Shown piece by piece: positions 6,479-36,700 of a DNA stretch of 64,000 nucleotides. This DNA comes from Deltaproteobacteria bacterium. GTDB lineage: Bacteria; Desulfobacterota; Binatia; DP-6. Both the position numbers and the translations under genes were made by a program. Under the pieces are notes generated by a model. The model had not been told where the DNA came from. It worked only from the letters and a program-made list of their open reading frames with translations, and made no database searches. Within the stretch, counting starts at the first letter, position 1. Every line of letters starts with the position of its first letter. The stretch spans positions 2,515-66,514 of the forward strand of contig VBKJ01000134.1 in the NCBI GenBank assembly GCA_005879795.1, in the 5' to 3' direction.

Positions 6479-6520
6479 TAATGGGCGATTGCGGGCGAGC
6501 GTCAAGGCCTGCGCTCGGCA

Positions 6521-6563
6521 GGCTGTCCGGACCACCACGGTGAGCGAGGCGAACGAGCCGGGG
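6521..6563. repeat. Conserved 45-nt intergenic motif, copy 1 (GGCTGTCCGGACCACCACGGTGAGCGAGGCGAACGAGCCGGG)
   Basis: Nearly identical to a second copy at 13139..13183, differing by 1 indel and a few substitutions. It lies in the 400-bp divergent intergenic region between glgC and the HAF-repeat gene. Confidence 0.6.
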
Positions 6564-6895
6564 GAGGTCCGCTCAAGCGTGAACGTCATCGTGCGAGGTT
6601 CGCACGCAAAGGCGAAGAGCGAGGAGCGCGCGGCGCAACAGTCGAGGTGGGCGACGACCTCCTGATGCGTCGCGCGGGCGGCGAAGATCCGGCCGGTGCA
6701 ATCCAGCGCCGCACCGACGTTCCCGAATCCACCCCCCCAACGCTGTGAACACCCGGTCACAGGTCCGACCGGCGAACGTTCCATCGTTCGCACGGCTGGT
6801 CCTGCCTGCCATGAATCTGACGCCAGCTGCCGGTAGATCGAGCACGTAGATCGTGGGGAGGGGCGTGGCACGACTCCTGCTCTGCCCACCCCTCT

Positions 6896-17863: not shown

Positions 17864-17931
17864 CGCCGTCCCTTCTCAGCCGTTGGCGAGCCCGGTCACG
17901 CAGCCGGCCACGGCCACACGCTCGTGGATGT

Positions 17932-19320
17932 TCATGTCGGCCTCGCTTTCCAGAAGTAGTTGTTGAAGCCGCCACCCTCGTGGATGCGGCGGAACACGAG
18001 CTCGAGGGGCATGTCGATCTCGACCCGCTCGGGCTCGCAGTCCGTGAGCTGGCAGTAGAGCCGGCCCCCGCCGTCCAGGTCGATCACCGCGTGCGAGGTG
18101 GGCGGGTCCGGGCTCTCGAAGAGGTAATCGTTGGTGAAGGTGAAGAGCCTCCCGCGCCGCGCGAGCTTCACCTCCTCGAGCCCGCCCGGGTGCGCGCACT
18201 CGATGCACACGCGGTGCTTCGGGAACTGGACCGTGCCGCACTTGGGGCACCTGCCGCCGTAGAGCGGGAGCAGCTCCTTGCGGTCGCGGAACATGACCAC
18301 CGCCGACGACGGGTCGCTGGTGACGGTCTCCCTGCGCACGAGCCCGCGGAAGCGCGCGTAGCGGCCGTAGGACGGGAGCGTGCGCTTCACCTCGATCTGC
18401 CGCCACACGCTGGGGCCCGCGGCCGCCGCCGGCGCGGTCACCCGCAGGAGGAGCGCGTCGGCCCCGTCGCCGTAGCCCGCGACCAGGATCAGGTCGCCGG
18501 GCTTCGCGCGCTCGAGTGCGGCGGCGAGGGCGAGGAGCGGCTGCGCCGCGCCCGTGTCGCCGACCGTCGTCCAGAAGCCGTCCTGGAGCTGCCGCTTCGC
18601 ATCGAGGCCGAGCGCCTTGGCGACGGCCTGCGGCGCGCGGAGGTTGGGGGTGGGCAGGATGACCGTGGCGAGGTCCTGGGGCGGGACCCTCGCCTTCGCG
18701 AGCACGCCCTTCACCGCCTCGCCGAGGACGCGGCCGTAGCCGTACCGGGCCTCGAACGCGCCCGGGAAGCTCCTCGGGAATTCCTGCTCCCGCGTCCGCC
18801 AGGTGCCCAGGAACTCGTCCGCGATCGAGTGCGTGGCGACCACCTGGACGCGCTCCGCCCCCCTGCCGAGGAGCACCGCCGCGCCCGCATCGCCGTAGCT
18901 CTGCTCGGCGATCGAGTCGGGCTCGCCCAGCCGGCACTCGCCCGCGGCGACCAGGACGCCGCGCGCGCCGCCCGCGAGCGCGTCGAGCCCGGCCAGCAGC
19001 GCCGAGGTGGCGGCGCGCAGCGTGTCGGTGAAGTCGGCGGTACGCGTCGCGCCCGGCAGGTCGAGGACGGCGGCGATGGTCGCGGCGCCCTGCTTCTCCG
19101 TGTACGGCGAGGTGGTGGTCGCGAAAAAGACAGCGTCGGGCCGCTCGCCCGCCCCCTCCAGCGCGAGCGCGGCGTTCACCGCCAGCGTGAGGCTGTCCTC
19201 GTCGTGGTTGGCGACCGCCTTCTCGCCGCCGGCCGCCTGCCCGCCCCATTCCCTGGCGATCAGCTCGCGCGGGAGCCGGTAGCGCGGGATGCAGGCGGCG
19301 GCGGCCACGATGCCGGGCAT
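17932..19320 (-). CDS. Thiolase-superfamily HMG-CoA-synthase-like enzyme fused to a C-terminal DUF35 (Zn-ribbon + OB-fold) domain
   Basis: 462 aa from MPGIVAAAACIPRYRL (ATG 19320..19318). The C-terminus has a GGRCPKCGTVQFPKHRVCIECA zinc ribbon typical of DUF35. Confidence 0.65.
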   Translation of the reverse strand: MPGIVAAAACIPRYRLPRELIAREWGGQAAGGEKAVANHDEDSLTLAVNAALALEGAGERPDAVFFATTTSPYTEKQGAATIAAVLDLPGATRTADFTDTLRAATSALLAGLDALAGGARGVLVAAGECRLGEPDSIAEQSYGDAGAAVLLGRGAERVQVVATHSIADEFLGTWRTREQEFPRSFPGAFEARYGYGRVLGEAVKGVLAKARVPPQDLATVILPTPNLRAPQAVAKALGLDAKRQLQDGFWTTVGDTGAAQPLLALAAALERAKPGDLILVAGYGDGADALLLRVTAPAAAAGPSVWRQIEVKRTLPSYGRYARFRGLVRRETVTSDPSSAVVMFRDRKELLPLYGGRCPKCGTVQFPKHRVCIECAHPGGLEEVKLARRGRLFTFTNDYLFESPDPPTSHAVIDLDGGGRLYCQLTDCEPERVEIDMPLELVFRRIHEGGGFNNYFWKARPT

Positions 19321-19339
19321 GACGGCTGGATCCCCCCTG

Positions 19340-20470
19340 TCAGACGACGCCGCGCGCGCGCAGCCCCGCGACGTCGGCGCGCGAGTACCCAAGCGCGGCG
19401 AGGACGGCGTCGGTGTGCTCGCCGAGCTCCGGGGGCGGCGTGCGGATGGTGGGCGGCGTGTCGGAGAGCTTGACCGGGTTGCCGAGCGTGCGCCGCCCGT
19501 CGCCCTGCTCGACCACCATGCCGCGGTGGCGCACCTGCCGATCGGCGAGCGCCTCGCCGAGCGTCGCCACCGGGCCGAAGCAGATGTCGAGGTCGGCCAG
19601 CTCCGCGACCCACTCGGCCATCGTCTTCTCGCGGAACCGGGCCCGCAGGCGGCGAAACATGTCCTCGCGCTCCGCCCCCTCGGCGAACTGCTTCTCGACG
19701 AGCTCCGGCATGCCGAGGCGCTCGCAGAGCGTGCGCCAGAAGTGCGGCTCGAGGGCGCCCACCGTCACGTGGCGGCCGTCGCGGGTCTCGTAAATGGCAT
19801 AGCAGGGGTGGTGGCCCGTGAGCATGGTGTCGCCGCGCGCCGGCTCCTGCTTCTCGGCGAGATAGCGCATCACGTTCACCACCTGCCAGGCGAGCGCACC
19901 GTCCAGCATGGCGATGTCGACGGACTGCCCGCTGCCCGTCTCCTCGCGCGCCGCGAGGGCCGCCAGGATGCCCACCGCCGCCATGAGCGCGCCCCCGCCG
20001 ATGTCGGCGATCTGCACGCCCGGGATGACGGGCGGTCCGCCCGCCGGCCCGGTCAGCCCGATCACGCCCGCGAAGCCCAGGTAGTTGACGTCGTGCCCGA
20101 CGCGGTCGCGATAGGGCCCGTCCTGGCCGTAGCCGGAGATCGAGCAGTAGACGAGGCGCGGATTCAGCTGCCCGAGCGTCTCGTAGTCGACCCCCAGGCG
20201 CGCCGCCGCCCCGGGCCGCGAGCCCTCGAGCACCACGTCCGCGTCGCGCGCCAGGCGGTGGAAGATGGCGCGCCCCTCGGGCACCTTCAGGTTGAGGGTC
20301 AGGCTCCGCTTGTTGCGGCCGAGGAGCGGGATGCCCATGCCCATCGGGTCGGTGGGCGAGTAGACGGCGAGCACGTCCATCCCGAGGTCCGCGAGCAGCA
20401 TGGAGCAGAACGGCCCCGGCAGCTGGCGCGACAGATCCAGCATCCGGAACCGCGACAGCGCACCGGGCAT
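19340..20470 (-). CDS. CoA-transferase family III (CaiB/BaiF/BbsEF-type)
   Basis: 376 aa. Family III features: LKVPEGRAIFHRLARDADVVLE, the RPG motif and GYGQDGPYRDRVGHD. Confidence 0.8.
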   Translation of the reverse strand: MPGALSRFRMLDLSRQLPGPFCSMLLADLGMDVLAVYSPTDPMGMGIPLLGRNKRSLTLNLKVPEGRAIFHRLARDADVVLEGSRPGAAARLGVDYETLGQLNPRLVYCSISGYGQDGPYRDRVGHDVNYLGFAGVIGLTGPAGGPPVIPGVQIADIGGGALMAAVGILAALAAREETGSGQSVDIAMLDGALAWQVVNVMRYLAEKQEPARGDTMLTGHHPCYAIYETRDGRHVTVGALEPHFWRTLCERLGMPELVEKQFAEGAEREDMFRRLRARFREKTMAEWVAELADLDICFGPVATLGEALADRQVRHRGMVVEQGDGRRTLGNPVKLSDTPPTIRTPPPELGEHTDAVLAALGYSRADVAGLRARGVV

Positions 20471-20850
20471 GATCCGGCTCGAGTACTACGATCGCGCCAC
20501 CCGTGACAACCTCCGCCGAGGGAGTGCTGTCCCCTCCAGACCGCGCCACGCCCGAGCGGGGATCGTTGCGGCCGGTCCCGTCTCGTGCCGCAAGGATCCC
20601 GGGCGTCTCGGCGTAGCATGGACCGCCTGACGCCGCTGAGCGGATGGAGCGTTGATGAAGGCTTTGGAACCTGGGGCGGCACGTCTGCCGACCGCGGCTT
20701 CGCCGCGGTCGGCACGACCCGAGCGCCCGAAGGGCGCGAGTCGGCCACGAGGGGGAGCCGCGCGCCCCGCGCGCGGCGACGGGGGTCCGGGGGGCATCGG
20801 AAGCGCGGAGCGCGGCGAAGCCGCGCGAGCACTGGACGGGCCCCCCGGGT

Positions 20851-22119
20851 CTAATGCCCGGCGTTCACCAGCGCCGCGACCGTGAACCAGTCGTCCGTCA
20901 CCCCCGCCTTCTCGCCCTGGTTGAAGTACCAGCCCTGCTCGCCCGGAAAACGGTGGCTCGGGAGGGAGGCCTTGGTCGCGTGCTCGAGCTGCACGTCGAC
21001 CATGACGATGGCCGGGGCGAAGATGCGCTCGTCCGGGTACTCGACGGCGCCGGGCGTGTCGAGGATCTTCCTCCGGATCATCACGTCGTTGATCCAGATC
21101 TTCCACAGCTCCCCGGCGCGATCGTACATGTCCGAGTACGGGATGCCCCACGCCTCCCTGTCGATGAAGAGGACGCGCTTGCCGAAGGCGTACTGCGAGA
21201 GCTTGGAGACGCCCTCGACGACGTGCACGCGCCGCCGCTCCCACACCTCGTCGAAGGCCCAGTCGACCCTGTCGTTCCACTGGACCGGGAAGTGCCGGCC
21301 GTGCGCCACCGCGAGCAGATCCCGCTCGCCGAGGTAGCGCCAGTCCATCCACGCGATGTGCCCCGCGTAGCCGCCGTAGCTGTCGACGTCCGTGTCCTGC
21401 CCGAAGAGCGCGTCCGAGCGCTGCGCGGTGGAGAGCCGGCGCACGCGGCGCAGCGCCGGCAGGTAGAGCCAGGCGTCGTCCTGCTTGGCAGCGTCCAGGT
21501 AGCGGTAGCTGACGAAGCCGACGCCCTTCACGTCGAAGGGCTCGAGGATCGGGTAGAGCCCCTGCTGGAGCTCGTAGCCGCTCGGGTTGGGCGCCTTCTC
21601 GGGCTTCGGGTCGACGTAGAGCCGCCCGACCCAGTAGAGGCGCCGGAAGTGATCGATCAAGAAGTGACGCTCGACCGTCATCGGGCCGTGGTCCGCGATC
21701 GCCCCGGTGTCGGCGTCGAAGTTGCGCGCATCGAGGTCGTCGGTCGCGAAGAAGTTGTGGTCGTAGTTCCACATGATCTTGACCGCGACCTGCGGGTCCT
21801 TCGCGTCGATGAAGGGGAAAGGCAGCCCCGCGACGTAGTCGCGCAGCGTCACCCCGTCGGCGGCGAGCCGCACCTGGCCCGAGTACCGCTCCGTCGCCTC
21901 CCGGTAGGCGCGCGGCCACTCGATGCGCCGGCTCTCGCCGACGGTGAGCGGGAACCCGTGCCGAACACACCACTCGAGCCCGGGCGAGATCAGCTCCCGC
22001 ACCTGCTCGACGTTCGCCTCGGTGATGCGGTCCCCCGCTGCAACGTCCGCCCGTGCTGCCCCGCCGAAGACGAGCGCCACCACGCCCGCCACGGCGACCC
22101 GCGCTGCCGGAAGCCCCAC
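20851..22119 (-). CDS. Secreted DUF1329-like family protein, paralog 1 of 4 (start uncertain, between 22119 and 22272)
   Basis: It shares ISPGLEWC..GFP, LYLPALRRVRRLSTAQRSDALFGQDTDVDSYGGY and SHRFPGEQGWYFNQGEKAG ... AALVNAGH with the three downstream paralogs. It has a signal peptide (VAVAGVVALVFGGAARA). Assignment to Pfam DUF1329 is from memory of the family. Confidence 0.6.
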   Translation of the reverse strand: MGLPAARVAVAGVVALVFGGAARADVAAGDRITEANVEQVRELISPGLEWCVRHGFPLTVGESRRIEWPRAYREATERYSGQVRLAADGVTLRDYVAGLPFPFIDAKDPQVAVKIMWNYDHNFFATDDLDARNFDADTGAIADHGPMTVERHFLIDHFRRLYWVGRLYVDPKPEKAPNPSGYELQQGLYPILEPFDVKGVGFVSYRYLDAAKQDDAWLYLPALRRVRRLSTAQRSDALFGQDTDVDSYGGYAGHIAWMDWRYLGERDLLAVAHGRHFPVQWNDRVDWAFDEVWERRRVHVVEGVSKLSQYAFGKRVLFIDREAWGIPYSDMYDRAGELWKIWINDVMIRRKILDTPGAVEYPDERIFAPAIVMVDVQLEHATKASLPSHRFPGEQGWYFNQGEKAGVTDDWFTVAALVNAGH

Positions 22120-22273
22120 TGAACGCCGGCCGCGCTGTCGCCGCGGCGCTTCATGCGGGCGCGGGGGCGCCGGCGCAGCGCCTATGAGGCGCCGAGCGCG
22201 ACGGGCGGCCAGAGCTCCGGCGCCGAGCGGCGCCGAATCGAAGCGGAGCCGGCGCCCCCGCGCCCGCAGCACG

Positions 22274-24911: not shown

Positions 24912-26189
24912 CTAGTGTCCGGCGTTCACCAGCGCGGCCACCGTGAACCAGTCGTCGGTGACGCCCGCCTTCTCGCTCTGGTTGAAGTACCAGCCCTGCT
25001 CCCCCGGGAAGCGGTGGCTCGGGAGCGAGGCTTTGGTCGCATGCTCGAGCTGCATGTCCACCATGACGATCGCCGGGATGAAGCCGCGGTCCTCCCCGTA
25101 GTCGATCACGTTGGCGCCCTCGAAGGCCTTCGGGCGGAAGCTCACGTCGTTGACCCAGACCTTCCAGAGCTCGCCGGAGCGGTCGTAGATGTCGGAGTAC
25201 GGGATGATCCAGGCCTCTTTGTCGACGAAGATGACGCGCTTGCCGTAGGCGTACTGCGGGAGCTTGGAGATGCCCTCGATGACGTACACCCGGCGCTTCT
25301 CCCACGTCTCGTCGAATGCCCAGTCGACCTTGTCGTTCCACTTCACCGGGTAGTTCTTCGCGTGGTAGCAGCTCAGGAGGTCGCGATCGCCCAGGTACTT
25401 GAAGTCCATCCAGGCAATGTGGCCGCTGTAGCCGTAGTAGCTGTCGACGTCGGTGTCCTGCCCGAAGAGCGCGTCCGAGCGCTGCGCGGTGGAGAGGCGG
25501 CGCACCCGCCGGAGTGACGGCAGGTAGAGCCACGAGTCGTCCTGCTTCTCGGAGGAGATGTAGCGGTTGCCGAGCGCGCCCACGCCCTTCAAGTCGAACG
25601 GCTCGAGGATCGGGTAGAGGCCCTGCTGGGCGCGGTAGCCGTTGGGGTTCGGCTTGTCGGGCTTGGGATCGACGTAGAGCCGGCCGGTCCAGAAGAGGCG
25701 GCGGAAGTGGTCGAGCAGGAAGTGGCGCTCCACCGTGAGCGGCCCGTGGTCGGCGATCGCCCCCGTGTCGGCATCGAAGTTGCGCAGGTCGACGTCGTCG
25801 GTGGTCAGGTGGTTGTAGCTCCAGTTCCACATGATCTTGAGCGCGACCTGCGGGTCCTTGGTGTCGACGTTCGGGAAGGGCAGCCCGGCGACGTAGTTGA
25901 GGACGTTGAGACCATCGGGCGTGAGCTTCACCTGGCTCGCGTACTTCTCGGTCGCCTCCTTGTACGCCTTCGGCCACTCGACCCGCTTGGTCTCGCCGAT
26001 GGTCATCGGCCAGCCGTGCTTGATGCACCACTCCATCCCGGGCGAGATGAGATCCTTGACCTTGTCGATGTTCTGCTCGGTGATCCGGTCGCCGGGTACG
26101 ACGTCGGCGCGCGCGGTGAAGGGAAGGATCGCGAGCGCGAACGTGGCGGCGCCCGCCAGCGCCAGCCACCAGCCGGGCTTCTTCGACAT
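24912..26189 (-). CDS. Secreted DUF1329-like family protein, paralog 4
   Basis: 425 aa starting MSKKPGWWLALAGAATFALAILPFTARA (ATG 26189..26187 verified). Confidence 0.65.
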   Translation of the reverse strand: MSKKPGWWLALAGAATFALAILPFTARADVVPGDRITEQNIDKVKDLISPGMEWCIKHGWPMTIGETKRVEWPKAYKEATEKYASQVKLTPDGLNVLNYVAGLPFPNVDTKDPQVALKIMWNWSYNHLTTDDVDLRNFDADTGAIADHGPLTVERHFLLDHFRRLFWTGRLYVDPKPDKPNPNGYRAQQGLYPILEPFDLKGVGALGNRYISSEKQDDSWLYLPSLRRVRRLSTAQRSDALFGQDTDVDSYYGYSGHIAWMDFKYLGDRDLLSCYHAKNYPVKWNDKVDWAFDETWEKRRVYVIEGISKLPQYAYGKRVIFVDKEAWIIPYSDIYDRSGELWKVWVNDVSFRPKAFEGANVIDYGEDRGFIPAIVMVDMQLEHATKASLPSHRFPGEQGWYFNQSEKAGVTDDWFTVAALVNAGH

Positions 26190-26305
26190 GGTCGGCTCTC
26201 CTCTGCCGTCGCTACGGGTTGGGGGGCTCGGGGTCAGCCTGGCTCCTACCTCGCCCAATGTCCGAACGTCAACCTAGGCTGCCGTGGTTACCCCGACAGA
26301 GACTC

Positions 26306-26872
26306 CTAGCCGCCGATCGGCGCCCCCGCCTCCGCGGCCGGGACACGGTCCGCCGACAGGGCCTGGAAGATGAGATCCTCGTAGTAGCGCACGTTCCGTC
26401 CGATCAGGACCACGTCCGGGGTCCCTCGACGCCGCGCGTAAACGGCGGTGCCGGTCGGATTCGGCCCGCCGATGGTGACCTCGAGCCGGTCGCCGCTCGT
26501 GCAGACCACTTCAACCCTGGCCGCCTGCTGGCCGAGCCCGTAGGTGTCCGCGTCTGCGTCCGCCCCTCCGACGCGGGCGATCTCGGTCGCATCGGCGAGG
26601 GCGTTCGCGAACGCGGCGATCAGGTCCGGGGCGATGGGCGCCCCCGCGGGCTCGACGATCGTCCACCCCGCCCCCTCGCGCCGCGAGACGACGGTCCGGC
26701 TGCCGCGCACCAGCCGGACCTCGCGCAGCGTTGCGGGGTCCAGCCGGAGGAAGGATGGCGGCGCGGGGGCCTCCGTGCGGGCCGGCGGCTCCATACGCCC
26801 CTCGACGAACCAGTACTCGCCCGCCAGGGCGGCGAGCACGAGGTAGAGCAGCGCCACCTGCCGCCAGCGCAT
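26306..26872 (-). CDS. DUF4340-like secreted protein (accessory to GldG-type ABC systems)
   Basis: 188 aa with a signal anchor. It sits immediately downstream of GldG, as DUF4340 proteins typically do. It contains the pattern W.IVEPAGAPIAPDLIAAFANALAD. Confidence 0.4.
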   Translation of the reverse strand: MRWRQVALLYLVLAALAGEYWFVEGRMEPPARTEAPAPPSFLRLDPATLREVRLVRGSRTVVSRREGAGWTIVEPAGAPIAPDLIAAFANALADATEIARVGGADADADTYGLGQQAARVEVVCTSGDRLEVTIGGPNPTGTAVYARRRGTPDVVLIGRNVRYYEDLIFQALSADRVPAAEAGAPIGG

Positions 26873-26874: not shown

Positions 26875-28242
26875 TCAGCCCCGCCGCCGCCAGGCGGCGA
26901 GCGCCAGCCCGAGCGCGGCGAAGAGGGCCGGCTCGACGACGGCGGTGCCCCAGAAGATCGCGTTCCCCTGCTCGTTCGAGACGTAGAACTGCTCCACGCC
27001 GAGCTCCTGGCGCCGGGGCCGGTGCGAGAGCCCCTGCGGATCGCGCGCCAGCCAGTTGACCGTGTTCGCGAACAGATCCTTGTTGCCGAGGTACTCGATG
27101 AAGAAGTTGTTGGCGAACTCCGCGTTGCCGTAGACGATGAGGCGCCCCTGCTGCGGCTCCGCGCCCGGCGGCGTGAGGGCGCGGAAGGCGACCTCGAGCC
27201 CGACCGTCACCGGCCCGGAGCGGTCACGCCCGGCCTCGAAGGCGGGCGACCCGTGGCGCAGGACGCCCGTGTCCGTCGTCGCCCAGCTCGCCGGGCTGGT
27301 GCGCAGGAAGCCGACCGCGTTGACCGTGCCGGCGTCGTCGGGGAGCACGTTGACCGAGCGCGTGAGCGAGAAGACGGGCGGCGCGTCGAGCGGCCCCAGG
27401 ATGGGGTGATCACCGCGCGCGAAGGGGACCTGCATGGTGAGCAGCTCGCCGCCGTAGAGACGCGCCTCGGGATCGACCACCACGTCGGGCGGGAGCGAGA
27501 CGTCATAGCGGTGGAGGAAGGCGGCCAGCTCGGGCGCCCGCAGCGGGTCGAGCATGATGAGCGCCTGGCCAGGGCGCTGGAGGTAGCGGTCGAGGACGGT
27601 CAGCTCCTCGGAGAGGAAGCTCTTGCGCGGGCCGGCGATGACGAGCACGGCGGTCTCGACCGGCACGTCGTCGCCGATGAGCGACACCGGGCGGACCTCG
27701 TAGTACTCCTGCTCGAGGACCACGCGCGCGGTCGAGTAGCCCTCGCGCCGGTCCGTGCTGTTCGGGTCGCCCTCGCCGTGCCCGAGGACCCAGCCGACCG
27801 TCTTCCGCTCCTGGCGGGTCACCTGGAGGAGGGCTGCCATGAGCACTTCCTCGCGGGGGTTGGAGAACACCCGCCGGCGGCCCTCGCTCTCGACCACCAG
27901 CGCGCCGTACGAGTCGACCCCGTACTGCCGGGCCAGCGCCGGGCTGCGGTTGACGTCGAGGTACTCGACGTGCACCCGCGGGCTGCGCGCCGTCACCTGC
28001 CGGAGGAGGTCGCGGATGAAGAGGTTGCGCGGGTCCTGCGCGCGCAGGAAGGCCACGACGTGGACGTCGGCGGCGAGGCCATCCAGGATCTTGCGCCCCT
28101 GGTCGGAGAGGGTGTAGCGGCGCTCGGCTGTGAGATCGAGCCGCCACGCCCGCCGGTCGAGGATCGCCTGGCCGAGGAGGAAGATGCCGAACAGGGCCGG
28201 CACGGCCAGCACGATGCGCAGCCGCTGCGCACCGACCCTCAT
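26875..28242 (-). CDS. GldG-like ABC-transporter auxiliary (gliding-motility-associated ABC_transp_aux family) protein
   Basis: 455 aa starting MRVGAQRLRIVLAVPALFGIFLL. The ATG overlaps the permease stop (ATGA, 28239-28242). It has an N-terminal TM segment, a large periplasmic domain and a C-terminal TM segment. Confidence 0.55.
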   Translation of the reverse strand: MRVGAQRLRIVLAVPALFGIFLLGQAILDRRAWRLDLTAERRYTLSDQGRKILDGLAADVHVVAFLRAQDPRNLFIRDLLRQVTARSPRVHVEYLDVNRSPALARQYGVDSYGALVVESEGRRRVFSNPREEVLMAALLQVTRQERKTVGWVLGHGEGDPNSTDRREGYSTARVVLEQEYYEVRPVSLIGDDVPVETAVLVIAGPRKSFLSEELTVLDRYLQRPGQALIMLDPLRAPELAAFLHRYDVSLPPDVVVDPEARLYGGELLTMQVPFARGDHPILGPLDAPPVFSLTRSVNVLPDDAGTVNAVGFLRTSPASWATTDTGVLRHGSPAFEAGRDRSGPVTVGLEVAFRALTPPGAEPQQGRLIVYGNAEFANNFFIEYLGNKDLFANTVNWLARDPQGLSHRPRRQELGVEQFYVSNEQGNAIFWGTAVVEPALFAALGLALAAWRRRG

Positions 28243-28985
28243 CGCCGGCCCCGCCACTGGCGCGCCTCGAGCACGCGCAGCGTGGCCCACACGAAGAGGC
28301 CGGCCACGAAGGCGAAGTAGAAGACGTCGCGTAGCTCGACCAGCCCGACCGAGAAGGGCTGGAAGTGGTTGAAGAGCGAGATGGCGCGCACCACGGGCAG
28401 CGTCCCGGCCGCGCTGGCGGCCTCGTTCCAGGAGAGCAGCCAGAGGAGCAGGAGCGGCAGCGCGGTGAGAAACCCCGCCAGCACCTGGCTGTCGGTGAGC
28501 GAGGAGACGAACAGGCCGTACGACGCGCACGCGAGCGAGAAGAGGATGAGCCCCAGGTACCCGGCGACGAGAGGCTTCAGGGCGAAGGGCTGGACGTGGT
28601 ACACCCACGCCGGATAGACGAGCGTCCCGCCGAGGAGCGCGCCGATCACCACCAGGCAGGCGCCCAGCTTCGCGGCCACGATGGCGCGGTCGCCGAGCGG
28701 GTAGGTGAGCAGCAGCTCGAGCGTCCCGAGCCGGCGCTCCTCGGCGAGGAGGCGCATGGTGAGGAGCGGAATGGCGAAGATCAGCACCAGGCGGATGTCG
28801 ATGAGCAGGATCTGCCAGAAGTTCTCCATGATGTTCAGGCCGAAGCCGAAGGTGATGAAGTAGATGAGATCCGAGTGGAAGTAGTATCCGGTGTAGGCGA
28901 GGAAGGCGGCCGCCACGAGATAGACGAGCGGCGAGCCGAAGTAGGAGCGCAGCTCCTTGCGAAAGAGCGCGACGAAGCTCCGCAC
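28239..28985 (-). CDS. ABC-2 family transporter permease (GldF-like)
   Basis: 248 aa with 6 predicted TM segments in ABC-2 topology. Confidence 0.7.
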   Translation of the reverse strand: MRSFVALFRKELRSYFGSPLVYLVAAAFLAYTGYYFHSDLIYFITFGFGLNIMENFWQILLIDIRLVLIFAIPLLTMRLLAEERRLGTLELLLTYPLGDRAIVAAKLGACLVVIGALLGGTLVYPAWVYHVQPFALKPLVAGYLGLILFSLACASYGLFVSSLTDSQVLAGFLTALPLLLLWLLSWNEAASAAGTLPVVRAISLFNHFQPFSVGLVELRDVFYFAFVAGLFVWATLRVLEARQWRGRR

Positions 28986-28988: not shown

Positions 28989-29936
28989 CTAGCTCCCGGG
29001 CCGATCCGCCGACCCGACCAGGTGGACGAACAGATCCTCGAGGGTGGGCGGGCTCGCCCGCACCTCGAGGAGCGTCCAGCCGCGCGCCACCATCGCGGCG
29101 CCGAGCGCCCGCTGCACCGGCTCGGGATCGTGCGCGAAGAGTGCGAAGGGAGTGCCCGCGAGGCCGTCCGGCCGACGGCGCTCCACCCGCACGACGCCCG
29201 GCAGCGTGCCGAGCGCGGCGGCCACCGTATCGGCGGGACCGTCCACGCGCACAGCGAGCTGTGCCAGGCCCGCCAGGCGCTGGGCCAGGCCCTCCGGCGT
29301 GTCGACCGCCACCAGCCGCCCGCGGGAGAGGATCACGATGCGCGAGCACAGGGCGGCCGCCTCGGAGAGAATGTGCGTCGAGAGGAGCATCGTACGCCCG
29401 GCGAGCGTACGCAGCAGCGCCCGCATCTCGACCGTCTGCATCGGGTCGAGGCCGACGGTCGGCTCGTCGAGCACGAGCACGTCCGCGTCCCCGACCAGCG
29501 CCTGCGCGAGCCCGACCCGCTGGCGATACCCCTTCGACAGCTTGCCGGCCAGGCGATCGGCGACCTCGGCGAGGCCGCACCGCGCGATGGCATCGGCCAC
29601 CGCGGCGCGGCGCGCGCGCCCGCCGAGCCCCTTCACCTCGGCCACGAAGGCCAGGTAGCGGCGCACCGTCAGCTCCGGATAGAGGGAGACCTGCTCGGGG
29701 AGATAGCCGATGCGCCGCCGGGCGGCCGCCGGCTGCTCGGCGACGTCCGCCCCGTCGATGCACACCCTCCCGGCGGTGGGTGGGAAGTAGCCGGTCAGCA
29801 CGCGCATCAGCGTGCTCTTGCCGCTGCCGTTCGGCCCGAGCAGCGCCGCCACCTCGCCCCGCCCGATGGTGAACGACACGTCGTCCACCGCGCAGGTCGT
29901 CCCGTAGTACTTGGTCAGGTGCTCGACGCTGATCAC
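28989..29936 (-). CDS. ABC transporter ATP-binding protein (GldA-like)
   Basis: 315 aa with a Walker A (GPNGSGKST), a signature (LSKGYRQRVGLAQAL) and a Walker B (VLVLDEPTVGLD). Confidence 0.8.
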   Translation of the reverse strand: MISVEHLTKYYGTTCAVDDVSFTIGRGEVAALLGPNGSGKSTLMRVLTGYFPPTAGRVCIDGADVAEQPAAARRRIGYLPEQVSLYPELTVRRYLAFVAEVKGLGGRARRAAVADAIARCGLAEVADRLAGKLSKGYRQRVGLAQALVGDADVLVLDEPTVGLDPMQTVEMRALLRTLAGRTMLLSTHILSEAAALCSRIVILSRGRLVAVDTPEGLAQRLAGLAQLAVRVDGPADTVAAALGTLPGVVRVERRRPDGLAGTPFALFAHDPEPVQRALGAAMVARGWTLLEVRASPPTLEDLFVHLVGSADRPGS

Positions 29937-30022: not shown

Positions 30023-30185
30023 GTGCAGCGGCCGGTGTCGGCCGGGTGCCGCCGCCGCGACCTCCGCAGGCCCGCACGCGCCGGCAGCTGTGCGGGGGGA
30101 CGCTGCGGCCGACGGGCGCGCGCGTGGCCGAGGACGCGGGAGCGCCGGCGGCACGCCGCCGACGCCCCGCCGCGGCCCTCGCCTA
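30023..30185. repeat. Structured GC-rich intergenic repeat element of about 165 bp, copy B (second copy at 50600..50768)
   Basis: About 85% nucleotide identity to copy A. A shared 14-bp long-range helix shows a compensatory G-C to C-G swap between the copies. It lies inside the minus-strand operon between the RND gene and the ABC ATPase gene. Confidence 0.65.
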
Positions 30186-30321
30186 GTGCCCCACCCGCGC
30201 CGCCCCTTCGCGCTCGCGCCGCTTGCGCCGCCGCGCGTGGATGATCTCGTCCATGACGATGACGGCGATGCTGAACACCGTGACGATGATGACCGATTCC
30301 CACAGCGTCATCGCGGCCTCC

Positions 30322-33006
30322 CTAGCTGACCGCCGCGGCCTGCGCCTGGACCACCGGGCGCCGCGACGCCTTCCCCCCCTCGCGCAGGATGAAGCCGGGG
30401 CGGAAGTACGAGATCATCACCGGCAGCAGTGTCTCGGAGCAGATGAAGCTGACGCCCATCCACACCGCCAGCAGCCCGCCCATGACGGCGTTGAAGCGGA
30501 TGTTCGAGAACGTCCACAGCGCCGTGCCGCCGATCATGCAGACCGCCGTGAAGCTCACCGCCTTGCCCGAGGTCACGAGCGCCTCGCGGATGGAGAGGTC
30601 GAGGTTGTTGTTGACCCGGATCTCCTCGATGATGCGGGAGAGGATGTAGAGACCGTAGTCGATCCCGAAGCCGACGCCGACCGTGACCAGCGGGAGCGTG
30701 TTCACGTTGATGCCGATCTCGAACACCGCCATGGCTGCGTTGATGAGGATGTTCGAGATGAAGAGCGGCGCCAGGAGGTAGAGGCCGGCGACCCACGAGC
30801 GGTAGCTGAACAGGACGATGACGTAGATCGTGAAGAAGCCGAGGAAGTTCATGAGCAGGTCGTTGCGCACGAGCTCCTCGTTGGCCGCCGCGAGCACCCC
30901 GATGAGCCCGCCGGCAAGCTTGAAGGTCGCCTTCCCGTCCATGTTGTTCTCGGGCCTGGCGATGAAGTCTTTGCACTCCTGGATGATGCGCGCGATGTTG
31001 TCGCCCTTGTGGTTGCGGGCGAAGAAGGTCACGTGCGAGGTGGTGTAGCTCGGGTCCACGTACTTCGCCGTCTCGGTCGGCGGCGAGCCGGAGAAGAAGA
31101 TGAAGAAGGTCTGCGCCACGTCGCGCGAGTTGTTGGGGATGACGCCCCACTTCGGCTCGAGCTCGTGGAAGACCATGTTGACCGCACGCAGGATGTCGGT
31201 GAGCGAGAAACTGTAGCCCACGTCCCGGTCGCGCTCGAGGTAGCGCTGGAAGTTCTCCATGGTGCGCAGCACCTTGGGGTCCTTCATGGCGTCGCGGTCC
31301 TTGCCCTCGGCGACGACGATCAGAGGCTCCACTCCGCCGAACTTGTCCTGGATGTGGGCGTGGGAGACGTTGTAGGGCGAGTCGCTCCACACCAGGGGCG
31401 AGGCCGAGGTCGGGTCGCCGACGATCAGGCCGCGCATGAGGAACGCGCCCACCGCCGTCAGCCCGAGCCAGAACACCATGGTCGTCCCCTTGCCGAGCGA
31501 CGAGAGGTTCCAGTCCGTGACGCGGTTGATGAGCGCCTTGTACCACCCCTTGTCGCGCGCCAGCACGACCTCGGGGTCGGGGGCCCGCAGGTAGTAGTAC
31601 ACGATCGGGTTCAGCAGCAGCTCGGCGACGGTGATGGCGAGGATCCACCACGAGATGACGATCGCCAGGTTGCGCAGCATGACGATCGGCACGAGGATGA
31701 TGACGAGCACGCCGAGCGCGTCGGTCACCACCCCGGCGAAGGTCGGGATGAAGAGCTCGGCGAAGGCCGCCACGATCGCCTTCCGCTGGTTCCAGTCGTG
31801 GCGCTCGAACTCCTCGTAGTAGCGGTCGTGCATCTGGATGGCGTGGCTCACGGCGCGGGCCGTCACCAGGAAGGGCATCACCAGGATGAGCGGGTCGAGA
31901 GCGAAGCCGATGATGTGTACGAAGCCGAGGCCCCAGAAGGCGGCGATGAGCCCGGTGAGCGTCGGGCGCAGCGCTCCGCGCCAGTCGTGGAAGTACATCC
32001 AACGGAAGATCCACTCGAAGCAGTAGGTGACGGTGAGGATCCAGAACACGTCGCTCGCGTAGCTGTAGACCCAGCCGTAGAGGCGCGGCTCGCCGGCGAC
32101 GTACAACTCGAGGTCGGGCTCGGGGATGGTGAGCTGGGCGTCTCTGGTTTCCTCGCCGCTCTTCACGCCGAGCCTGACGGTCGTCCCGGGCTTGTACTTC
32201 TGGATCTCCGCCGCCAGCTCCACCCGGTCCGCCACCGGCTTCCCGTTGACCGACACGATGATGTCCCCCACCTTGAGCCCGGCCCTGGCCGCCGCCGTGT
32301 CGCGGTAGACGGTGTCCACCGCCGCGGCCGCCGAGGTCTCGCCCTTGAACGCGTCCCGGCCCCTGATGAGCGCACCGATCCAGCCCTTCTCGAAGGGCGC
32401 GATGACCCGCTCGTTGATCTCGGTGAAGGTGCGGCGGTGATCGAGGCGTGCTTCGATGAAGTTGGCGCGCACCAGGGCGGCCCGGTCGTCGAGCGAGACG
32501 AGGATGCCGTAGATGCTCTCGGTGTTGTGGACGATGCGCTTGATGTTGGCCGCGTCGTCTGCCGTCTTCGGCATCTGGATCATCACTGGCTCGGCCTTCA
32601 GGAACCCGCCCGCCTGGGCGCGGAGGTAGCGAGTCGTGCGGTGGCCGATCGAGTCGATCTGGTTGTGGTTCACGCCGTAGACGCGGTCCATCTCCTCCGT
32701 GATCTTGTAGATGCGATCGAGGGTCGAGACCGTGAAGATGTCGCCGTCCTTCACCTCGACCATCAGCTGGATGTTGTTGGCGCCGCCGAACGTGCCGGCG
32801 TACTTGTTGTGGACCTGGACGAAGGGGTGGCTCTGCGGGAGGAGGTCGCCGAAGCTCGTCTCGAGCTTCAGCTGGAAGCTCAGCCACGCGAAGTACCCCG
32901 TGACGATGAGCACCACGATCATGACCGGGTGGCGGTAGTCGATCAGCCGCTCGCCCAGCCAGTAGAGTGCTCGCTTGTCCTCTTCGCTCGTGGTTCCGCT
33001 GCTCAT
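30322..33006 (-). CDS. RND-superfamily (MMPL/HAE3-like) exporter with a PDZ domain inserted in the first periplasmic loop
   Basis: 894 aa in two halves of 6 TM segments each. A PDZ-like segment sits at roughly aa 225-305 (AARAGLKVGDIIVSVNGKPVADRVELAAEIQKYKPGTTVRLGV). Confidence 0.7.
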   Translation of the reverse strand: MSSGTTSEEDKRALYWLGERLIDYRHPVMIVVLIVTGYFAWLSFQLKLETSFGDLLPQSHPFVQVHNKYAGTFGGANNIQLMVEVKDGDIFTVSTLDRIYKITEEMDRVYGVNHNQIDSIGHRTTRYLRAQAGGFLKAEPVMIQMPKTADDAANIKRIVHNTESIYGILVSLDDRAALVRANFIEARLDHRRTFTEINERVIAPFEKGWIGALIRGRDAFKGETSAAAAVDTVYRDTAAARAGLKVGDIIVSVNGKPVADRVELAAEIQKYKPGTTVRLGVKSGEETRDAQLTIPEPDLELYVAGEPRLYGWVYSYASDVFWILTVTYCFEWIFRWMYFHDWRGALRPTLTGLIAAFWGLGFVHIIGFALDPLILVMPFLVTARAVSHAIQMHDRYYEEFERHDWNQRKAIVAAFAELFIPTFAGVVTDALGVLVIILVPIVMLRNLAIVISWWILAITVAELLLNPIVYYYLRAPDPEVVLARDKGWYKALINRVTDWNLSSLGKGTTMVFWLGLTAVGAFLMRGLIVGDPTSASPLVWSDSPYNVSHAHIQDKFGGVEPLIVVAEGKDRDAMKDPKVLRTMENFQRYLERDRDVGYSFSLTDILRAVNMVFHELEPKWGVIPNNSRDVAQTFFIFFSGSPPTETAKYVDPSYTTSHVTFFARNHKGDNIARIIQECKDFIARPENNMDGKATFKLAGGLIGVLAAANEELVRNDLLMNFLGFFTIYVIVLFSYRSWVAGLYLLAPLFISNILINAAMAVFEIGINVNTLPLVTVGVGFGIDYGLYILSRIIEEIRVNNNLDLSIREALVTSGKAVSFTAVCMIGGTALWTFSNIRFNAVMGGLLAVWMGVSFICSETLLPVMISYFRPGFILREGGKASRRPVVQAQAAAVS

Positions 33007-33021: not shown

Positions 33022-34104
33022 TCAGCCCTGTGACGGCAGCCAGGTCTTGCCGCCGTCGGTGGTGCGATAGATCAGCCCGTATCCGCCGACGAGCCAGCCG
33101 TTCTTCTCGTCGGAGAAGCTGAGCCCGCGCAGCCAGGTGAGCACGTCCTGTCCGAGCTTGGCCCGGTGCCACGCCGTCTCGCCCGCCTGCCGCCGCACCA
33201 CCTCGCCCGCGGCGCCCACTGCCCAGCCCGCCCCGCTCGGGAGCTCGATCGGGCGGAAGAGCGGATCGACGAGTGGATAGTCGACCTCGATCTGATCGAA
33301 CGTCCACCGCTGCCCGCCGTCGTTGGTGCGCGCGATGTGTCCCTCGATGCCCGCCGCCACACCCCGCTGCGCGTCCATCATGTGCACGCCGTAGAGCGTC
33401 GGGAGGTCGAGCGGATCGAAGATCCCCGTGCCCTCCATCAGCGTCTTCTCCTGCTCGTGCCACGTCTCGCCGCCGTCCGCCGTGTGCATGATCTTGCCGA
33501 ACTCGCCCACGATCCAGCCGTTCTTCGCGTCCGTGAACTTCACGTCGTAGAGGATGGGATCGGCCGCCGCGAGGCTCTCGCCGCCGGAGATGTCGGCTTC
33601 CATTTCCACCTTGCGCGCGCGCCACGTCTTGCCCCCGTCGCTCGTCGAGGTGAGGATCGAGCGGTCGCCCGCCGCCCAGGCGTGGTCGGCGTCGAGGGCG
33701 TAGAGCGCGAAGAGGTAGAGCGGCTGCCTGGAGCCGTCCTTGTCCTCGAAGAACGCGTTCGACTCCTGCTGCTGCCAGCTCTTGCCGCCGTCGGCGGTAT
33801 GCAGGATGAGGCCGTCCTGCCCCGAGATGAAGCCGTGCTGGTCGTCGGTGAAGCGCACGGCATAGAGCGCCAGCTCGGTGCCGCTCGGACGCGCGGTCCA
33901 GCTCCGGCCACCGTCGGTCGTCTCGAGGATCTTGCCGTTGTAGCCGACGACGAAGGCGCGGTCCTTGCTGAGCGCTTGCACGTCGTAGAAGCGGTCGGTC
34001 ACGTAGATGGTGCGCTGGGCGAGCGGCACCATCTCGACCTCGTGATGGCATCCGAGCACGAGCGCGAGGAGGGTGGCCCCTCCCGGGATGATCCAGCGAC
34101 GCAT
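33022..34104 (-). CDS. Ycf48-like BNR/Asp-box repeat lipoprotein (photosystem II stability/assembly factor homolog family)
   Basis: Starts MRRWIIPGGATLLALVLGCHHE, which contains a lipobox. It has repeated T.DGG.SW/TW BNR motifs: ETTDGGRSWT, HTADGGKSWQ, STSDGGKTWR, HTADGGETWH, RTNDGGQRWT and RTTDGGKTW. Confidence 0.7.
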   Translation of the reverse strand: MRRWIIPGGATLLALVLGCHHEVEMVPLAQRTIYVTDRFYDVQALSKDRAFVVGYNGKILETTDGGRSWTARPSGTELALYAVRFTDDQHGFISGQDGLILHTADGGKSWQQQESNAFFEDKDGSRQPLYLFALYALDADHAWAAGDRSILTSTSDGGKTWRARKVEMEADISGGESLAAADPILYDVKFTDAKNGWIVGEFGKIMHTADGGETWHEQEKTLMEGTGIFDPLDLPTLYGVHMMDAQRGVAAGIEGHIARTNDGGQRWTFDQIEVDYPLVDPLFRPIELPSGAGWAVGAAGEVVRRQAGETAWHRAKLGQDVLTWLRGLSFSDEKNGWLVGGYGLIYRTTDGGKTWLPSQG

Positions 34105-34174: not shown

Positions 34175-34654
34175 TCAATGGGACGAGCCTCCCCCGGCAT
34201 CCGCCTTAGGGAACCACTTGGAGACGTCCTTGGGCTCCACGATCACCTGGCGGTCGACCTTCCAGGCGCCATCCTCCTTGAGGAGGGTGTAGAGCTCGTA
34301 CTCGGTGAGCCCGAGCTGGTTCACGAAGCGGTCCTGGGAGGAGAGGACGTTCGGCACCCAGGCCGTGGCGCCCTCGACCTTGCCGGGATGGACATGGAAC
34401 TCGAAGATCTTGACGTCCGCGAACGCCATGCCGGTCTTCTGCTCCTTCACCCAGACCTCGCGGTCCTTCCCCTGCTTCATCGCCTTGGAGACCAGGTCGT
34501 AGGCGGCGTCGAACCTTCCGTCCTTGAGGGCCTGCAGGTACCGCCGGACGGTCTCCTCCGGCGAGAGCGGGGTGGTCTCCGCGGCTGGCACTCTCGCGGC
34601 GACGACGAGCCCGAGTGCGCCGAACGCCCACGAGAGCGAGCGCGCGCGAGGCAT
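34175..34654 (-). CDS. Secreted NTF2-like hypothetical protein
   Basis: 159 aa with a signal peptide (MPRARSLSWAFGALGLVVAARVPAAE). The motif ETVRRYLQALKDGRFDAAYDL is typical of NTF2/SnoaL-like lipoprotein families. Confidence 0.4.
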   Translation of the reverse strand: MPRARSLSWAFGALGLVVAARVPAAETTPLSPEETVRRYLQALKDGRFDAAYDLVSKAMKQGKDREVWVKEQKTGMAFADVKIFEFHVHPGKVEGATAWVPNVLSSQDRFVNQLGLTEYELYTLLKEDGAWKVDRQVIVEPKDVSKWFPKADAGGGSSH

Positions 34655-34811
34655 GTCCGCTCCCTACCACGGCCGCGTGCCGGCCGGAAGCCGGCGACGA
34701 TTCTGCATCGGAGGGACCAATTTTGCGCCGCAGCCCTCACAGCCTAGCCCGGGGAATCCGCACCGCGCTCTGCGTACGGGGGTGGCACGTCACTTGCTGC
34801 CCGGCACGGAC

Positions 34812-35039
34812 ATGGACGAGAACCCCGGCAACCTGATCCGCACGCTCCGCCAGAAGCTCAGCATGACGCAGGAAGAGTTCGCGCACGAGATCGCGGTCAC
34901 CGTCTCGACCGTGAACCGCTGGGAGAACGCGCATGCCGAGCCGAGCAAGTTGGCGTGGAAGGCGATCCACGACCTGGCGCGCAAGCGCGGGTTGACCGAG
35001 GACATCCTGCGCCTCGCGGGGGCGCTGAGCGGCGGCTGA
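34812..35039 (+). CDS. XRE-family helix-turn-helix transcriptional regulator
   Basis: 75 aa starting MDENPGNLIRTLRQKLSMTQEEFAHEIAVTVSTVNRWEN, a classic HTH_3 motif. The ATG at 34812 was verified. Confidence 0.65.
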   Translation: MDENPGNLIRTLRQKLSMTQEEFAHEIAVTVSTVNRWENAHAEPSKLAWKAIHDLARKRGLTEDILRLAGALSGG

Positions 35040-35308: not shown

Positions 35309-36700
35309 ATGAGCCACTCCCAAGCCATCGCCGCCGTCGGCCCGGTGGAGCAAGCCAAGATCCTGGTGGTCGAGGACGATCCGGACATCCGGAAGATCCT
35401 CGAGCTCTTCCTCGGCGAGAAGGGCTTCCGCGTGAAGATCGCCGACGGCGCGCCGCGTGCCCTCGAGCTGCTCGGCGAGGAGCCGATCGACGTGATCCTC
35501 TCCGACGTGCGCATGCCCGGCATGAGCGGGCTCGATCTGCTGCGGCACGTGAAGGAGCAGGATCCGGACATCCAGCTCGTCCTCATGAGCGCCTACTCGT
35601 CGGTCAAGGACGCGGTCGAGGCGATCCAGCTCGGCGCCGCCGACTACGTCGAGAAGCCGATCGACTTCCGCCGTCTCGAGCGCGTGCTGCAGACGGTGCT
35701 CGAGAAGCACCAGCTCCAGCACCGCACGCGCATCCTCGAGCAGCGCCTGCAGGGCTGCGTCACCTTCGAGGGCATGGTCGCGCGCTCGGCGCAGATGCTG
35801 TCGGTGTTCGCCTTCATCGAGCGCCTGGCGCGCTATCCCACCACCGCGCTCGTGATGGGCGAGAGCGGGACCGGCAAGGAGCTCGTCGCAGGCGCGCTCC
35901 ACAGCCTCTCGCCGCTCCGCGACCGCCCCTTCGTGGTCTGCAACTGCACGACCCTCGCGCCCACGCTGCTCGAGAGCGAGCTCTTCGGGCACGTGCGCGG
36001 CGCGTTCACGGGCGCGGACCGGGACCGCAAGGGCCTCTTCGAGGCGGCCCACGGCGGCACCATTTTCCTCGACGAGATCGGCGAGCTGCCGGTCGCCGTG
36101 CAGGTGAAGCTGCTGCGCGTCCTCGAGAACCGGGAGATCAAGCGCATCGGCTCGCCCGACCCCGTGCACATCGACATCCGGGTGATCGCCGCCACCAACC
36201 GCGACCTCGCCGACATGGTGCGCGAGGCGACCTTCCGCGACGACCTCTTCTACCGCCTGAACGTGGGCGCCATCCACCTCCCGCCGCTGCGCAGCCGCAC
36301 CGACGACATCGAGCCGCTCGTCCACCACTTCGTCGGCATCTTCAACCAGCGGCTGGGCCGCACCATGAGCGGCGCCGCCCCCGAGGTGTTCGACATCCTC
36401 GCCCGCTATTCCTGGCCCGGCAACGTGCGCGAGCTCGCCAACGTGATCGAACGCGCGATGGTGGTCTGCAAATCGAGCGTGATCGTGCCCGAGAGCCTGC
36501 CGCCGCACCTCTTCGAGGTCCGTCCGCTGCTCCTCGACGACGGGCCCGAGATGCCCGACCTGAGCCTGCGCGCAGCGGAGCGGGAGCAGATCGTACGTGC
36601 GCTGCAGGCCTCGGGGGGCAAGCGCGTGGAGGCGGCGCGCCGGCTCGGCCTCTCGCGGCGTACGCTGTACCGCAAGCTGTCGCGCTACGGCATCTCGTGA
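35309..36700 (+). CDS. σ54-dependent Fis-family response regulator (NtrC family)
   Basis: 463 aa with a receiver domain (ILVVEDDPDIR ... ILSDVRMPGMSG), a σ54-interaction AAA+ domain (GESGTGKELVAGALH, the GAFTGA loop, ESELFGH) and a C-terminal Fis-type HTH. Confidence 0.85.
   Translation: MSHSQAIAAVGPVEQAKILVVEDDPDIRKILELFLGEKGFRVKIADGAPRALELLGEEPIDVILSDVRMPGMSGLDLLRHVKEQDPDIQLVLMSAYSSVKDAVEAIQLGAADYVEKPIDFRRLERVLQTVLEKHQLQHRTRILEQRLQGCVTFEGMVARSAQMLSVFAFIERLARYPTTALVMGESGTGKELVAGALHSLSPLRDRPFVVCNCTTLAPTLLESELFGHVRGAFTGADRDRKGLFEAAHGGTIFLDEIGELPVAVQVKLLRVLENREIKRIGSPDPVHIDIRVIAATNRDLADMVREATFRDDLFYRLNVGAIHLPPLRSRTDDIEPLVHHFVGIFNQRLGRTMSGAAPEVFDILARYSWPGNVRELANVIERAMVVCKSSVIVPESLPPHLFEVRPLLLDDGPEMPDLSLRAAEREQIVRALQASGGKRVEAARRLGLSRRTLYRKLSRYGIS

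Follow-up and report, generated by a model that had tools for sequence, protein, structure and literature searches.

HAE3-type RND transporters with Ycf48-like and LolA-like partners have been described as AmeABCD in Castellaniella defragrans, and as PP_2018/PP_2019 with DUF1302/DUF1329 in Pseudomonas (PMC6394551; bioRxiv 10.1101/2020.07.04.188060). The transfer of hydrophobic cargo from HAE3/MMPL transporters to periplasmic partners is poorly understood, and the Ycf48-like and DUF1329/DUF1302 partners found in Pseudomonas and Castellaniella are without an assigned mechanism. The system analyzed here is found in a 64,000 nt stretch of DNA (the window, meaning this whole stretch; G+C approximately 70%) from an uncultured soil bacterium of the phylum Binatota. 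Its central gene, at 30322..33006 on the minus strand, encodes an 894 amino acid (aa) RND transporter of the MMPL/HAE3-like type. The predicted protein carries a PDZ domain of the HtrA type, as known from periplasmic quality-control proteases, inserted in its first periplasmic loop, and the presence of this domain is strongly correlated with gene context.

The transporter gene is part of a minus-strand cassette with the order NTF2-like protein, Ycf48-like lipoprotein, RND transporter, 42 aa transmembrane (TM) protein, GldA-, GldF- and GldG-like proteins, DUF4340 protein and four DUF1329 proteins. As in AmeABCD and the Pseudomonas system, an HAE3/MMPL-like RND gene directly follows that of a Ycf48/BNR-like periplasmic protein, and DUF1329 LolA-like proteins are encoded nearby. 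AmeABCD and the window cassette are both linked to hydrophobic-compound metabolism. Compared with AmeABCD, the window cassette adds the PDZ domain, the NTF2-like protein, the tiny TM protein and a GldA/F/G-like ABC system with DUF4340; however, unlike AmeABCD, no DUF1302 outer-membrane protein gene was matched among the window open reading frames scanned with Pfam. AmeD, compared here by its description only, has 787 aa, the size of the PDZ-less homologues discussed below, and a PDZ domain is not mentioned in PMC6394551.

The transporter gene consists of a single long open reading frame. The protein matches MMPL (PF03176) with 60 bits against a gathering threshold of 20.5 (Pfam scan) and is thus a member of that family. 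In NCBIfam the top-scoring RND model is TIGR00921 (HAE3) with 104 bits, which is under the cut-off of 351.9; since HAE3 is the best RND model but the score is below the curated cut-off, the protein is termed HAE3-like and not assigned to HAE3 itself. An AlphaFold2 model of the full protein, based on an alignment of 104 homologues, has a mean predicted local distance difference test score (pLDDT) of 77 and a predicted template modeling score of 0.77. Twelve long helices are present in the model: TM1 at positions 25–43, TM2–6 within 306–472, TM7 at 503–526 and TM8–12 within 701–868. The helix map shows the RND hallmark: two homologous halves that total 12 TM helices, and a large periplasmic loop following the first helix of each half (TM1 and TM7). 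D371 in the TM4 region and D783-Y784 in the TM10 region are invariant across the 104 sequences; they may be the counterparts of the MmpL3 Asp-Tyr proton-relay pairs.

When the full model is compared with the PDB by Foldseek, the best matches are MmpL5, MmpL4, MmpL3, HpnN, NPC1 and Patched, with E-values of 1e-21 to 1e-16, and the whole-chain structural matches also include AcrB. The overall fold is that of HpnN and MmpL3/4/5 (same E-value range; TM-score approximately 0.6–0.7 on the target), but sequence identity is 12–13% and the descriptions of the PDB entries, by which the comparison is made, mention no PDZ. The 894 aa protein is thus a proton-motive-force-type RND transporter of the MMPL/HAE3 kind and, by analogy, may work like the HpnN/MmpL-type lipid exporters. 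A search of the window for a second RND gene gave none.

Three Pfam PDZ models match the first periplasmic loop, all above their gathering cut-offs: PDZ_2 (PF13180) with 46.1 bits against 27 (E-value = 6e-12), PDZ_6 (PF17820) with 43.1 bits against 27, and PDZ (PF00595) with 37.8 bits against 23.2. Together they span residues 206–293, and the PDZ_2 match marks the core of the domain at residues 227–293 (32128..32328, minus strand). These scores are far beyond chance. The NCBIfam models for DegP/DegQ/DegS/RseP match this segment through their PDZ portion. The HtrA models match via the PDZ segment only (residues approximately 218–296) and far under their cut-offs, and the Pfam scan shows no protease domain in the 894 aa protein, which therefore does not belong to the HtrA/DegP protease family. 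As far as these searches go, the HtrA likeness is limited to the PDZ.

The predicted structure is in agreement with the profile matches. Residues 220–300 display a pLDDT of approximately 88–93 in the full-length model, and the segment consists of a strand (212–214), a strand (229–233), a helix (238–241), a strand (249–253), a helix (261–269) and two strands (276–283 and 286–293). This is the order beta-beta-alpha-beta-alpha-beta-beta, and it is followed by a strand at 299–305 that leads directly into TM2. A model of the domain by itself (residues 200–306, pLDDT 78) superposes in Foldseek on solved PDZ domains, the best PDB matches being PDZ1 of DegQ, DegP, MucD and DegS (probability 1.0, TM-score 0.62–0.73, 26–32% identity). 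A profile built from 47 homologous inserts matches DegQ/DegP at an E-value of approximately 1e-26, and the DegS and RseP PDZs at 1e-14 to 1e-10. By profile and by predicted fold, the insert is an HtrA-type PDZ.

A putative carboxylate-binding loop, K207-G-W-I-G-A212, is found at 32371..32388 (minus strand) and is equivalent to the GLGF loop. It aligns with the start of the DegP/DegS PDZ1 match, and G208-W-I-G-A212 has the form x-Phi-G-Phi ahead of the groove strand. The loop is near-invariant in 47 PDZs found at this insertion site (site 1), and a regular expression for [G/A]-[W/Y]-x-G-Phi is satisfied by 44 of them. Near-invariant positions of the domain as a whole are G208, W209, G211, A212, A239, D248, G255 and R261. 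The PDZ diverges approximately twice as fast as the transporter core, with a mean identity to the query of 40% against 71%, and was the lower of the two in 48/48 comparisons. A conserved loop in a fast-diverging domain is what would be expected if the domain is peripheral and makes use of its peptide-binding groove, and the sequences suggest that this is the case here.

A preliminary description of this gene had claimed a canonical PDZ domain in periplasmic loop 1 of an RND/MMPL protein, between TM1 and TM2, and had proposed scans with PF00595, PF13180 and PF17820, a structure prediction and a comparison with homologues. Both the domain and its location are borne out: the three profiles all score above their gathering cut-offs, the prediction gives a PDZ fold at a pLDDT of approximately 90 with PDB matches to the same fold, and insert-free homologues align without interruption over this stretch, so that the insertion is lineage-specific. 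The interval first proposed, 32090–32340, does contain the PDZ_2 core, but the insertion itself occupies 32101..32391 and runs approximately 50 nt past the upper bound. Similarly, a GLGF-type loop is present as described, in the form GWIGA, but is situated upstream of the peptide that had been quoted for it (AARAGLKVGD...KSGEE, residues 239–286) and outside the interval. The quoted peptide extends from alphaA to betaE, and its AGLKVGD is an alphaA/betaD segment typical of HtrA-type PDZs.

Alignments with PDZ-less paralogs define an insertion of approximately 97 residues (206–302; 32101..32391, minus strand) in periplasmic loop 1. Between the same anchors the query has 97 residues, and the L035-type and P0122-type proteins have 8, so that the PDZ-less sequence reads ...VxxPFE, 8 residues, ...YVAGEPRLYGW. 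Most homologues in a library clustered at 50% are 770–800 aa long, and query residue ~300 maps to their residue ~200. The AlphaFold2 model places the insertion between TM1 (25–43) and TM2 (from 306), where the PDZ is spliced between the last helix of the porter subdomain PD1 (190–205) and the final beta-strand, 299–305, into TM2. The PD1 elements ahead of the insert are all kept, i.e. strands 77–85 and 176–183 and helices 93–110, 149–161 and 190–205. The PDZ had been thought to stand where a porter subdomain normally does; the loop is indeed the same, but the subdomain is retained and the PDZ added at its end. Replacement of the porter subdomain by the PDZ is thus rejected, since no PD1 element is missing and the clean insert is the only difference from PDZ-less paralogs. 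The PDZ is an added module at the end of PD1.

Inserted domains of other kinds and PDZs in other hosts offer several comparisons. MmpL4/5 also bear an extra inserted domain, a coiled coil according to the entry descriptions. This coiled coil is located in a periplasmic porter loop, and accessory insertions in RND porter loops are thus already known. Here, in contrast to MmpL4/5, the insert is a peptide-binding-type module, and among paralogs it occupies two pseudo-symmetric sites. The PDZ has the same layout as PDZ1 of the HtrA family (DegP, DegQ, DegS, MucD), with the carboxylate-binding loop at the N-terminal edge, but is embedded in a transporter loop, where it joins the porter subdomain at either end, and the protease domain is absent. 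Site-2 proteases such as RseP and aq_1964 likewise have PDZs between transmembrane helices, facing the periplasm; those hosts, however, are intramembrane metalloproteases and not transporters. The RseP PDZ tandem is a substrate size filter, a role that is not evident in the RND PDZ. RND transporters thus join a short list of polytopic membrane proteins with periplasmic PDZs, of which RseP is the classic case.

The combination of MMPL and PDZ is found in all 120 nearest homologues (74–100% identity). Their source names include "MMPL family transporter [Candidatus Binatia bacterium]", the 90% cluster of the query includes GenBank TMB20271.1, and public automatic annotation already labels the protein "PDZ domain-containing". 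Full-text literature searches for PDZ together with RND, MMPL or HpnN found no paper. One genome per species was scanned, giving 78 loci, and the RND genes were classed by insert length at the two sites. Most of these loci carry Binatia/Binatota labels, or the older Deltaproteobacteria/Myxococcales labels usual for such metagenome-assembled genomes; a few are under other names and are probably mis-assigned. The insertion is confined to a clade of Binatia metagenome-assembled genomes and occurs in four architectures. The query protein has an insert in loop 1 only. Other proteins, e.g. L035, have no insert and a core approximately 70% identical to that of the query. The P0122 family has an insert in loop 2 only (L081, 9001-11697; L083, 9001-11682) on cores that are 60–67% identical. 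Proteins of approximately 1000 aa have inserts in both loops (L033, L034, L038, L039, L041, L042 and L063).

The loop-2 insert is situated immediately before the strand ...FKLAGGLIG into TM8, which is the pseudo-symmetric counterpart of the loop-1 site. It gives weak Pfam PDZ_2 matches, and two PDZ stretches are detected in L033 and L034. The best PDB matches of a loop-2 PDZ profile are RseP-homologue and DegQ/DegP PDZs, with the aq_1964 PDZ at the top (E-value = 7e-10), and the loop-2 and site-1 profiles align in hhalign with a probability of 97%. Judged by these profile comparisons, the loop-2 insert is also a PDZ and homologous to that of site 1. Most loop-2 PDZs display an additional conserved loop, WEKAGPSW. 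A paralog series with zero, one (in either half) or two PDZs on near-identical cores constitutes a natural comparative experiment. This two-site series, along with its link to a conserved RND-plus-ABC cassette, is the aspect of most interest.

Trees of the core were made by neighbor joining with 40 bootstrap replicates; they are crude and may be affected by recombination among paralogs. PDZ states are interleaved on these trees. By parsimony, in all 40 replicates, site 1 has changed state at least 6 times and site 2 at least 2 times (median 5). A single PDZ gain defining one clade is therefore rejected, on the basis of the six or more site-1 changes on these crude bootstrap trees. It seems more probable that an ancestor had the PDZ and that the domain was cleanly lost several times than that it was gained several times at one and the same residue. 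The L051 RND (4296-6773) has no PDZ but lies in a complete cassette, and it branches from within a group of loop-1-PDZ relatives, as if the PDZ had been cleanly lost not long ago.

Across the loci the cassette goes with the PDZ: almost all PDZ-bearing forms are encoded in it, unlike the close PDZ-less paralogs. The same gene order is found in the Binatia contigs L001 and L002. A GldA-like ATPase gene lies just downstream of the RND gene in 39/39 loop-1-PDZ loci that have a downstream flank, and the cassette genes other than that of the ATPase are present in 31–38 of the 41, the Ycf48-like gene being upstream in 38/41. The NTF2-like gene is found in 33/41 loop-1-PDZ loci vs 1/30 PDZ-less loci. 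Of the double-PDZ loci, 4/7 have the cassette, as do the two loop-2-PDZ loci that were examined; among 30 PDZ-less loci it occurs in one, that of L051. Loop-2 branches that diverge more deeply lack the ABC genes but retain those for the small protein, the Ycf48-like protein and the RND. The PDZ-less paralog L035 is situated in an unrelated context of VWA, TPR, acyl-CoA dehydrogenase, TerC and TonB-receptor genes. Because Ycf48-like genes also precede some PDZ-less RND genes, the NTF2-like gene and the ABC/GldG/DUF4340 genes are those that track the PDZ best. DUF1329 genes adjoin only 17 of the 41 loop-1-PDZ loci. The cassette is a conserved, uncharacterized RND and ABC envelope cassette in an uncultured phylum.

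The role that we consider most likely, with confidence evenly balanced for and against, is docking: the HtrA-type PDZ of PD1 would be a flexible module to which a periplasmic partner from the cassette binds for the hand-over of cargo. Strand 299–305 has to reach the membrane from the far end of PD1, and the most likely place for the PDZ is therefore the membrane-distal tip of the porter domain, facing the periplasm. This is the end at which cargo probably leaves pumps of the MMPL/HpnN type. The PDZ groove would capture the C-terminal tail, or an exposed strand, of the partner, and docking would hold the partner at the periplasmic outlet of the pump for the hand-over of hydrophobic cargo. A flexible tether is favored over a fitted gate because either of the pseudo-symmetric sites, or the two together, can accommodate the module, and a cassette protein is suggested as the ligand because the PDZ co-occurs with the cassette. 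If a peptide-binding module is indeed part of the porter domain, it gives a direct, testable handle on cargo hand-over.

Candidate partners are the NTF2-like carrier, DUF4340, the GldG-like ABC component, and the Ycf48-like or DUF1329 lipoproteins. Candidate tails are AP[IV]GG or G[AP]V in DUF4340, ...H (...SSH) in the NTF2-like protein, LPSQG, IPAAA or YRRIG in the Ycf48-like proteins and FTVAALVNAGH in DUF1329. Docking of the C-termini of the DUF1329 paralogs or of lipoproteins, which the preliminary description had suggested, is plausible from the sequences: the binding loop is conserved and the DUF1329 C-terminal 11-mer is identical among the paralogs. For DUF1329, however, the scarcity of adjacent genes noted above counts against docking, as does the occurrence of DUF1329 with PDZ-less RND systems (AmeABCD, PMC6394551). 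The tiny TM protein was also considered as a ligand and rejected, since its basic C-terminal half predicts a cytoplasmic C-terminus and it accompanies PDZ-less RNDs as well.

Several observations weigh against a docking module. A search for ligands by C-terminal conservation gave no canonical hydrophobic HtrA-PDZ ligand, and tails are conserved within subclades only. Where the PDZ stands with respect to the porter cleft is deduced from chain topology only. PDZ presence is labile on the trees; the L051 RND is without a PDZ inside a full cassette, so that the PDZ is dispensable in at least one lineage; and three of the seven double-PDZ genes are outside the cassette. A broader proposal, which we regard as unlikely, is that the PDZs couple a two-engine envelope machine by binding the conserved tail of a partner such as DUF4340, GldG or the NTF2-like carrier. 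The proton-driven RND would then be tied to the ATP-driven GldAFG-like ABC system and to the LolA-like and Ycf48-like lipoproteins in one conveyor of a hydrophobic envelope component, and which partners a paralog recruits would depend on how many PDZs it has and where they are (loop 1, loop 2, both or none).

Other roles for the domain can be weighed against the same observations. A sensor of the DegS type would have the PDZ on the porter domain inhibit or gate the periplasmic cleft until exposed hydrophobic C-termini, e.g. those of unassembled outer-membrane proteins or lipoproteins, release it, so that transport activity tracks the state of the envelope. The PDZ of DegS is a sensor of this kind, and PDZ1 of the HtrA proteases, DegS included, is the closest relative of the insert; the conserved binding loop and the placement of the cassette under a sigma-54 response regulator also agree. 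However, a module found at either site, at both or at neither on cores 60–70% identical is ill-suited to a finely fitted allosteric interface, and a dedicated partner would account better than a generic stress signal for the tight linkage with particular cassette genes, so that a sensor role is doubtful. Assembly is a less likely function again. Here the PDZ would contact another protomer or a second PDZ and stabilize an oligomer (a dimer or larger), in the way that DegP/DegQ cages are held by PDZ1-PDZ2 contacts, and both the HtrA-type ancestry and the existence of double-PDZ forms fit, as does the fact that solved HAE3/MMPL structures are monomers, dimers or trimers according to the PDB entry descriptions. 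But single-PDZ forms with the domain at either site, and PDZ-less forms on near-identical cores, would each have to oligomerize through a different interface; conservation of the carboxylate-binding loop is a sign of peptide binding and not of surface contact alone, and the correlation with the cassette is left unexplained.

Direct handling of cargo, with the PDZ groove binding a hydrophobic substrate such as a lipid or lipopeptide tail and serving, above the porter cleft, as a lid or as the place where cargo is received, appears improbable. Some PDZ domains do bind lipids, topology puts the domain at the outlet end of PD1, and the neighborhood is rich in fatty-acid and beta-oxidation genes. 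The conserved elements, however, are those that bind a peptide carboxylate, the same porter core is found in PDZ-less paralogs, and no lipid-binding signature was seen, although none was specifically tested for. Lastly, the insert might be a largely neutral passenger: a surface loop tolerant of insertions would have taken up an HtrA-derived PDZ, which now has little function and is lost repeatedly. The many state changes on the tree, the PDZ-less L051 within a cassette and a PDZ evolving approximately twice as fast as the core would all be expected of a passenger. Yet PDZs just 28–35% identical are still intact, fold confidently in prediction and conserve the binding loop, a PDZ is present in every one of the 120 nearest homologues, and the correlation with gene context is strong; we consider this the least probable of the explanations given.

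The individual cassette genes in the window, all on the minus strand, are as follows. The first, at 34175..34654, encodes a small secreted NTF2-like protein of 159 aa with a weak match to MecA_N (NTF2-like; E-value = 1e-3) and a conserved (W/Y)FP motif near the C-terminus; a sequence search of this protein against the PDB gave no match. Immediately upstream of the RND gene, at 33022..34104, is the gene for the Ycf48/BNR-like beta-propeller lipoprotein, which displays the lipobox LVLGC and matches Pfam PSII_BNR with 146 bits. Directly downstream of the RND stop codon, at 30183..30311, is the open reading frame of the 42 aa single-TM protein (MTLWESVIIVTVFSIAVIVMDEIIHARRRKRRE...), which is conserved and has no Pfam match. 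Homologues of 38–65 aa follow the RND gene in 39/74 loci regardless of PDZ state, and by analogy with AcrZ or YajC the protein may be a small pump subunit.

The ABC system consists of a GldA-like ATPase at 28989..29936 (Pfam ABC_tran; TIGR03522 GldA), a GldF-like ABC-2 permease at 28239..28985 and a GldG-like auxiliary protein (ABC_transp_aux, DUF7088) at 26875..28257, the latter two identified by Pfam and NCBIfam. Scores for the NCBIfam equivalog models are below the cut-offs (GldA 265 against 402.6 bits, GldF 118.5 against 288.5 and GldG 55 against 389.9), and the three are thus relatives and not equivalogs. The DUF4340 gene (Pfam) at 26306..26872 encodes a membrane-anchored protein with a tail ending in APIGG. 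Four tandem DUF1329/LolA-like paralogs follow at 24912..26258, 23557..~24900, 22274..~23560 and 20851..22272, with Pfam DUF1329 scores of 165–185 bits each. They share 71–80% mutual identity and the same C-terminal 11-mer, FTVAALVNAGH. Unrelated as they are, the NTF2-like, tiny TM and DUF1329 proteins of the closest clade all have His as their last residue.

Two open reading frames of 457 and 429 aa lie just past the DUF1329 array (17876..19249 and 19260..20549, minus strand) and have no Pfam match. Divergent from the cassette, on the plus strand, are an Xre-type helix-turn-helix (HTH) gene at 34524..35039 and a gene for a sigma-54-dependent response regulator at 35309..36700; both are conserved in the closest loci. 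The region is flanked by acyl-CoA dehydrogenase, thiolase and SDR genes. The only other PDZ of the window is found in a 622 aa open reading frame at 35..1903 (plus strand), where it is combined with a thioredoxin/redoxin (AhpC-TSA) domain; PDZ_6 scores 31.9 bits, over its cut-off, and PDZ_2 and PDZ are below theirs.

Regulatory and other neighbors vary among the loci. The loop-2-PDZ loci (L081, L083, L084 and the P0125 contig) display a conserved upstream GAF-PtsP gene (PEP-utilizing enzyme). A DUF493 gene and a response-regulator histidine kinase gene are nearby in 3/4 of these, L084 having no DUF493 call. In the loop-1 loci closest to the window, the sigma-54 response regulator and the Xre-type HTH gene are found instead, in approximately half of those examined. 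L071 (5185-12385) contains two tandem pairs of a Ycf48-like gene and a PDZ-less RND gene, the RND proteins having 803 aa each, and a third, more distant RND open reading frame is situated downstream.

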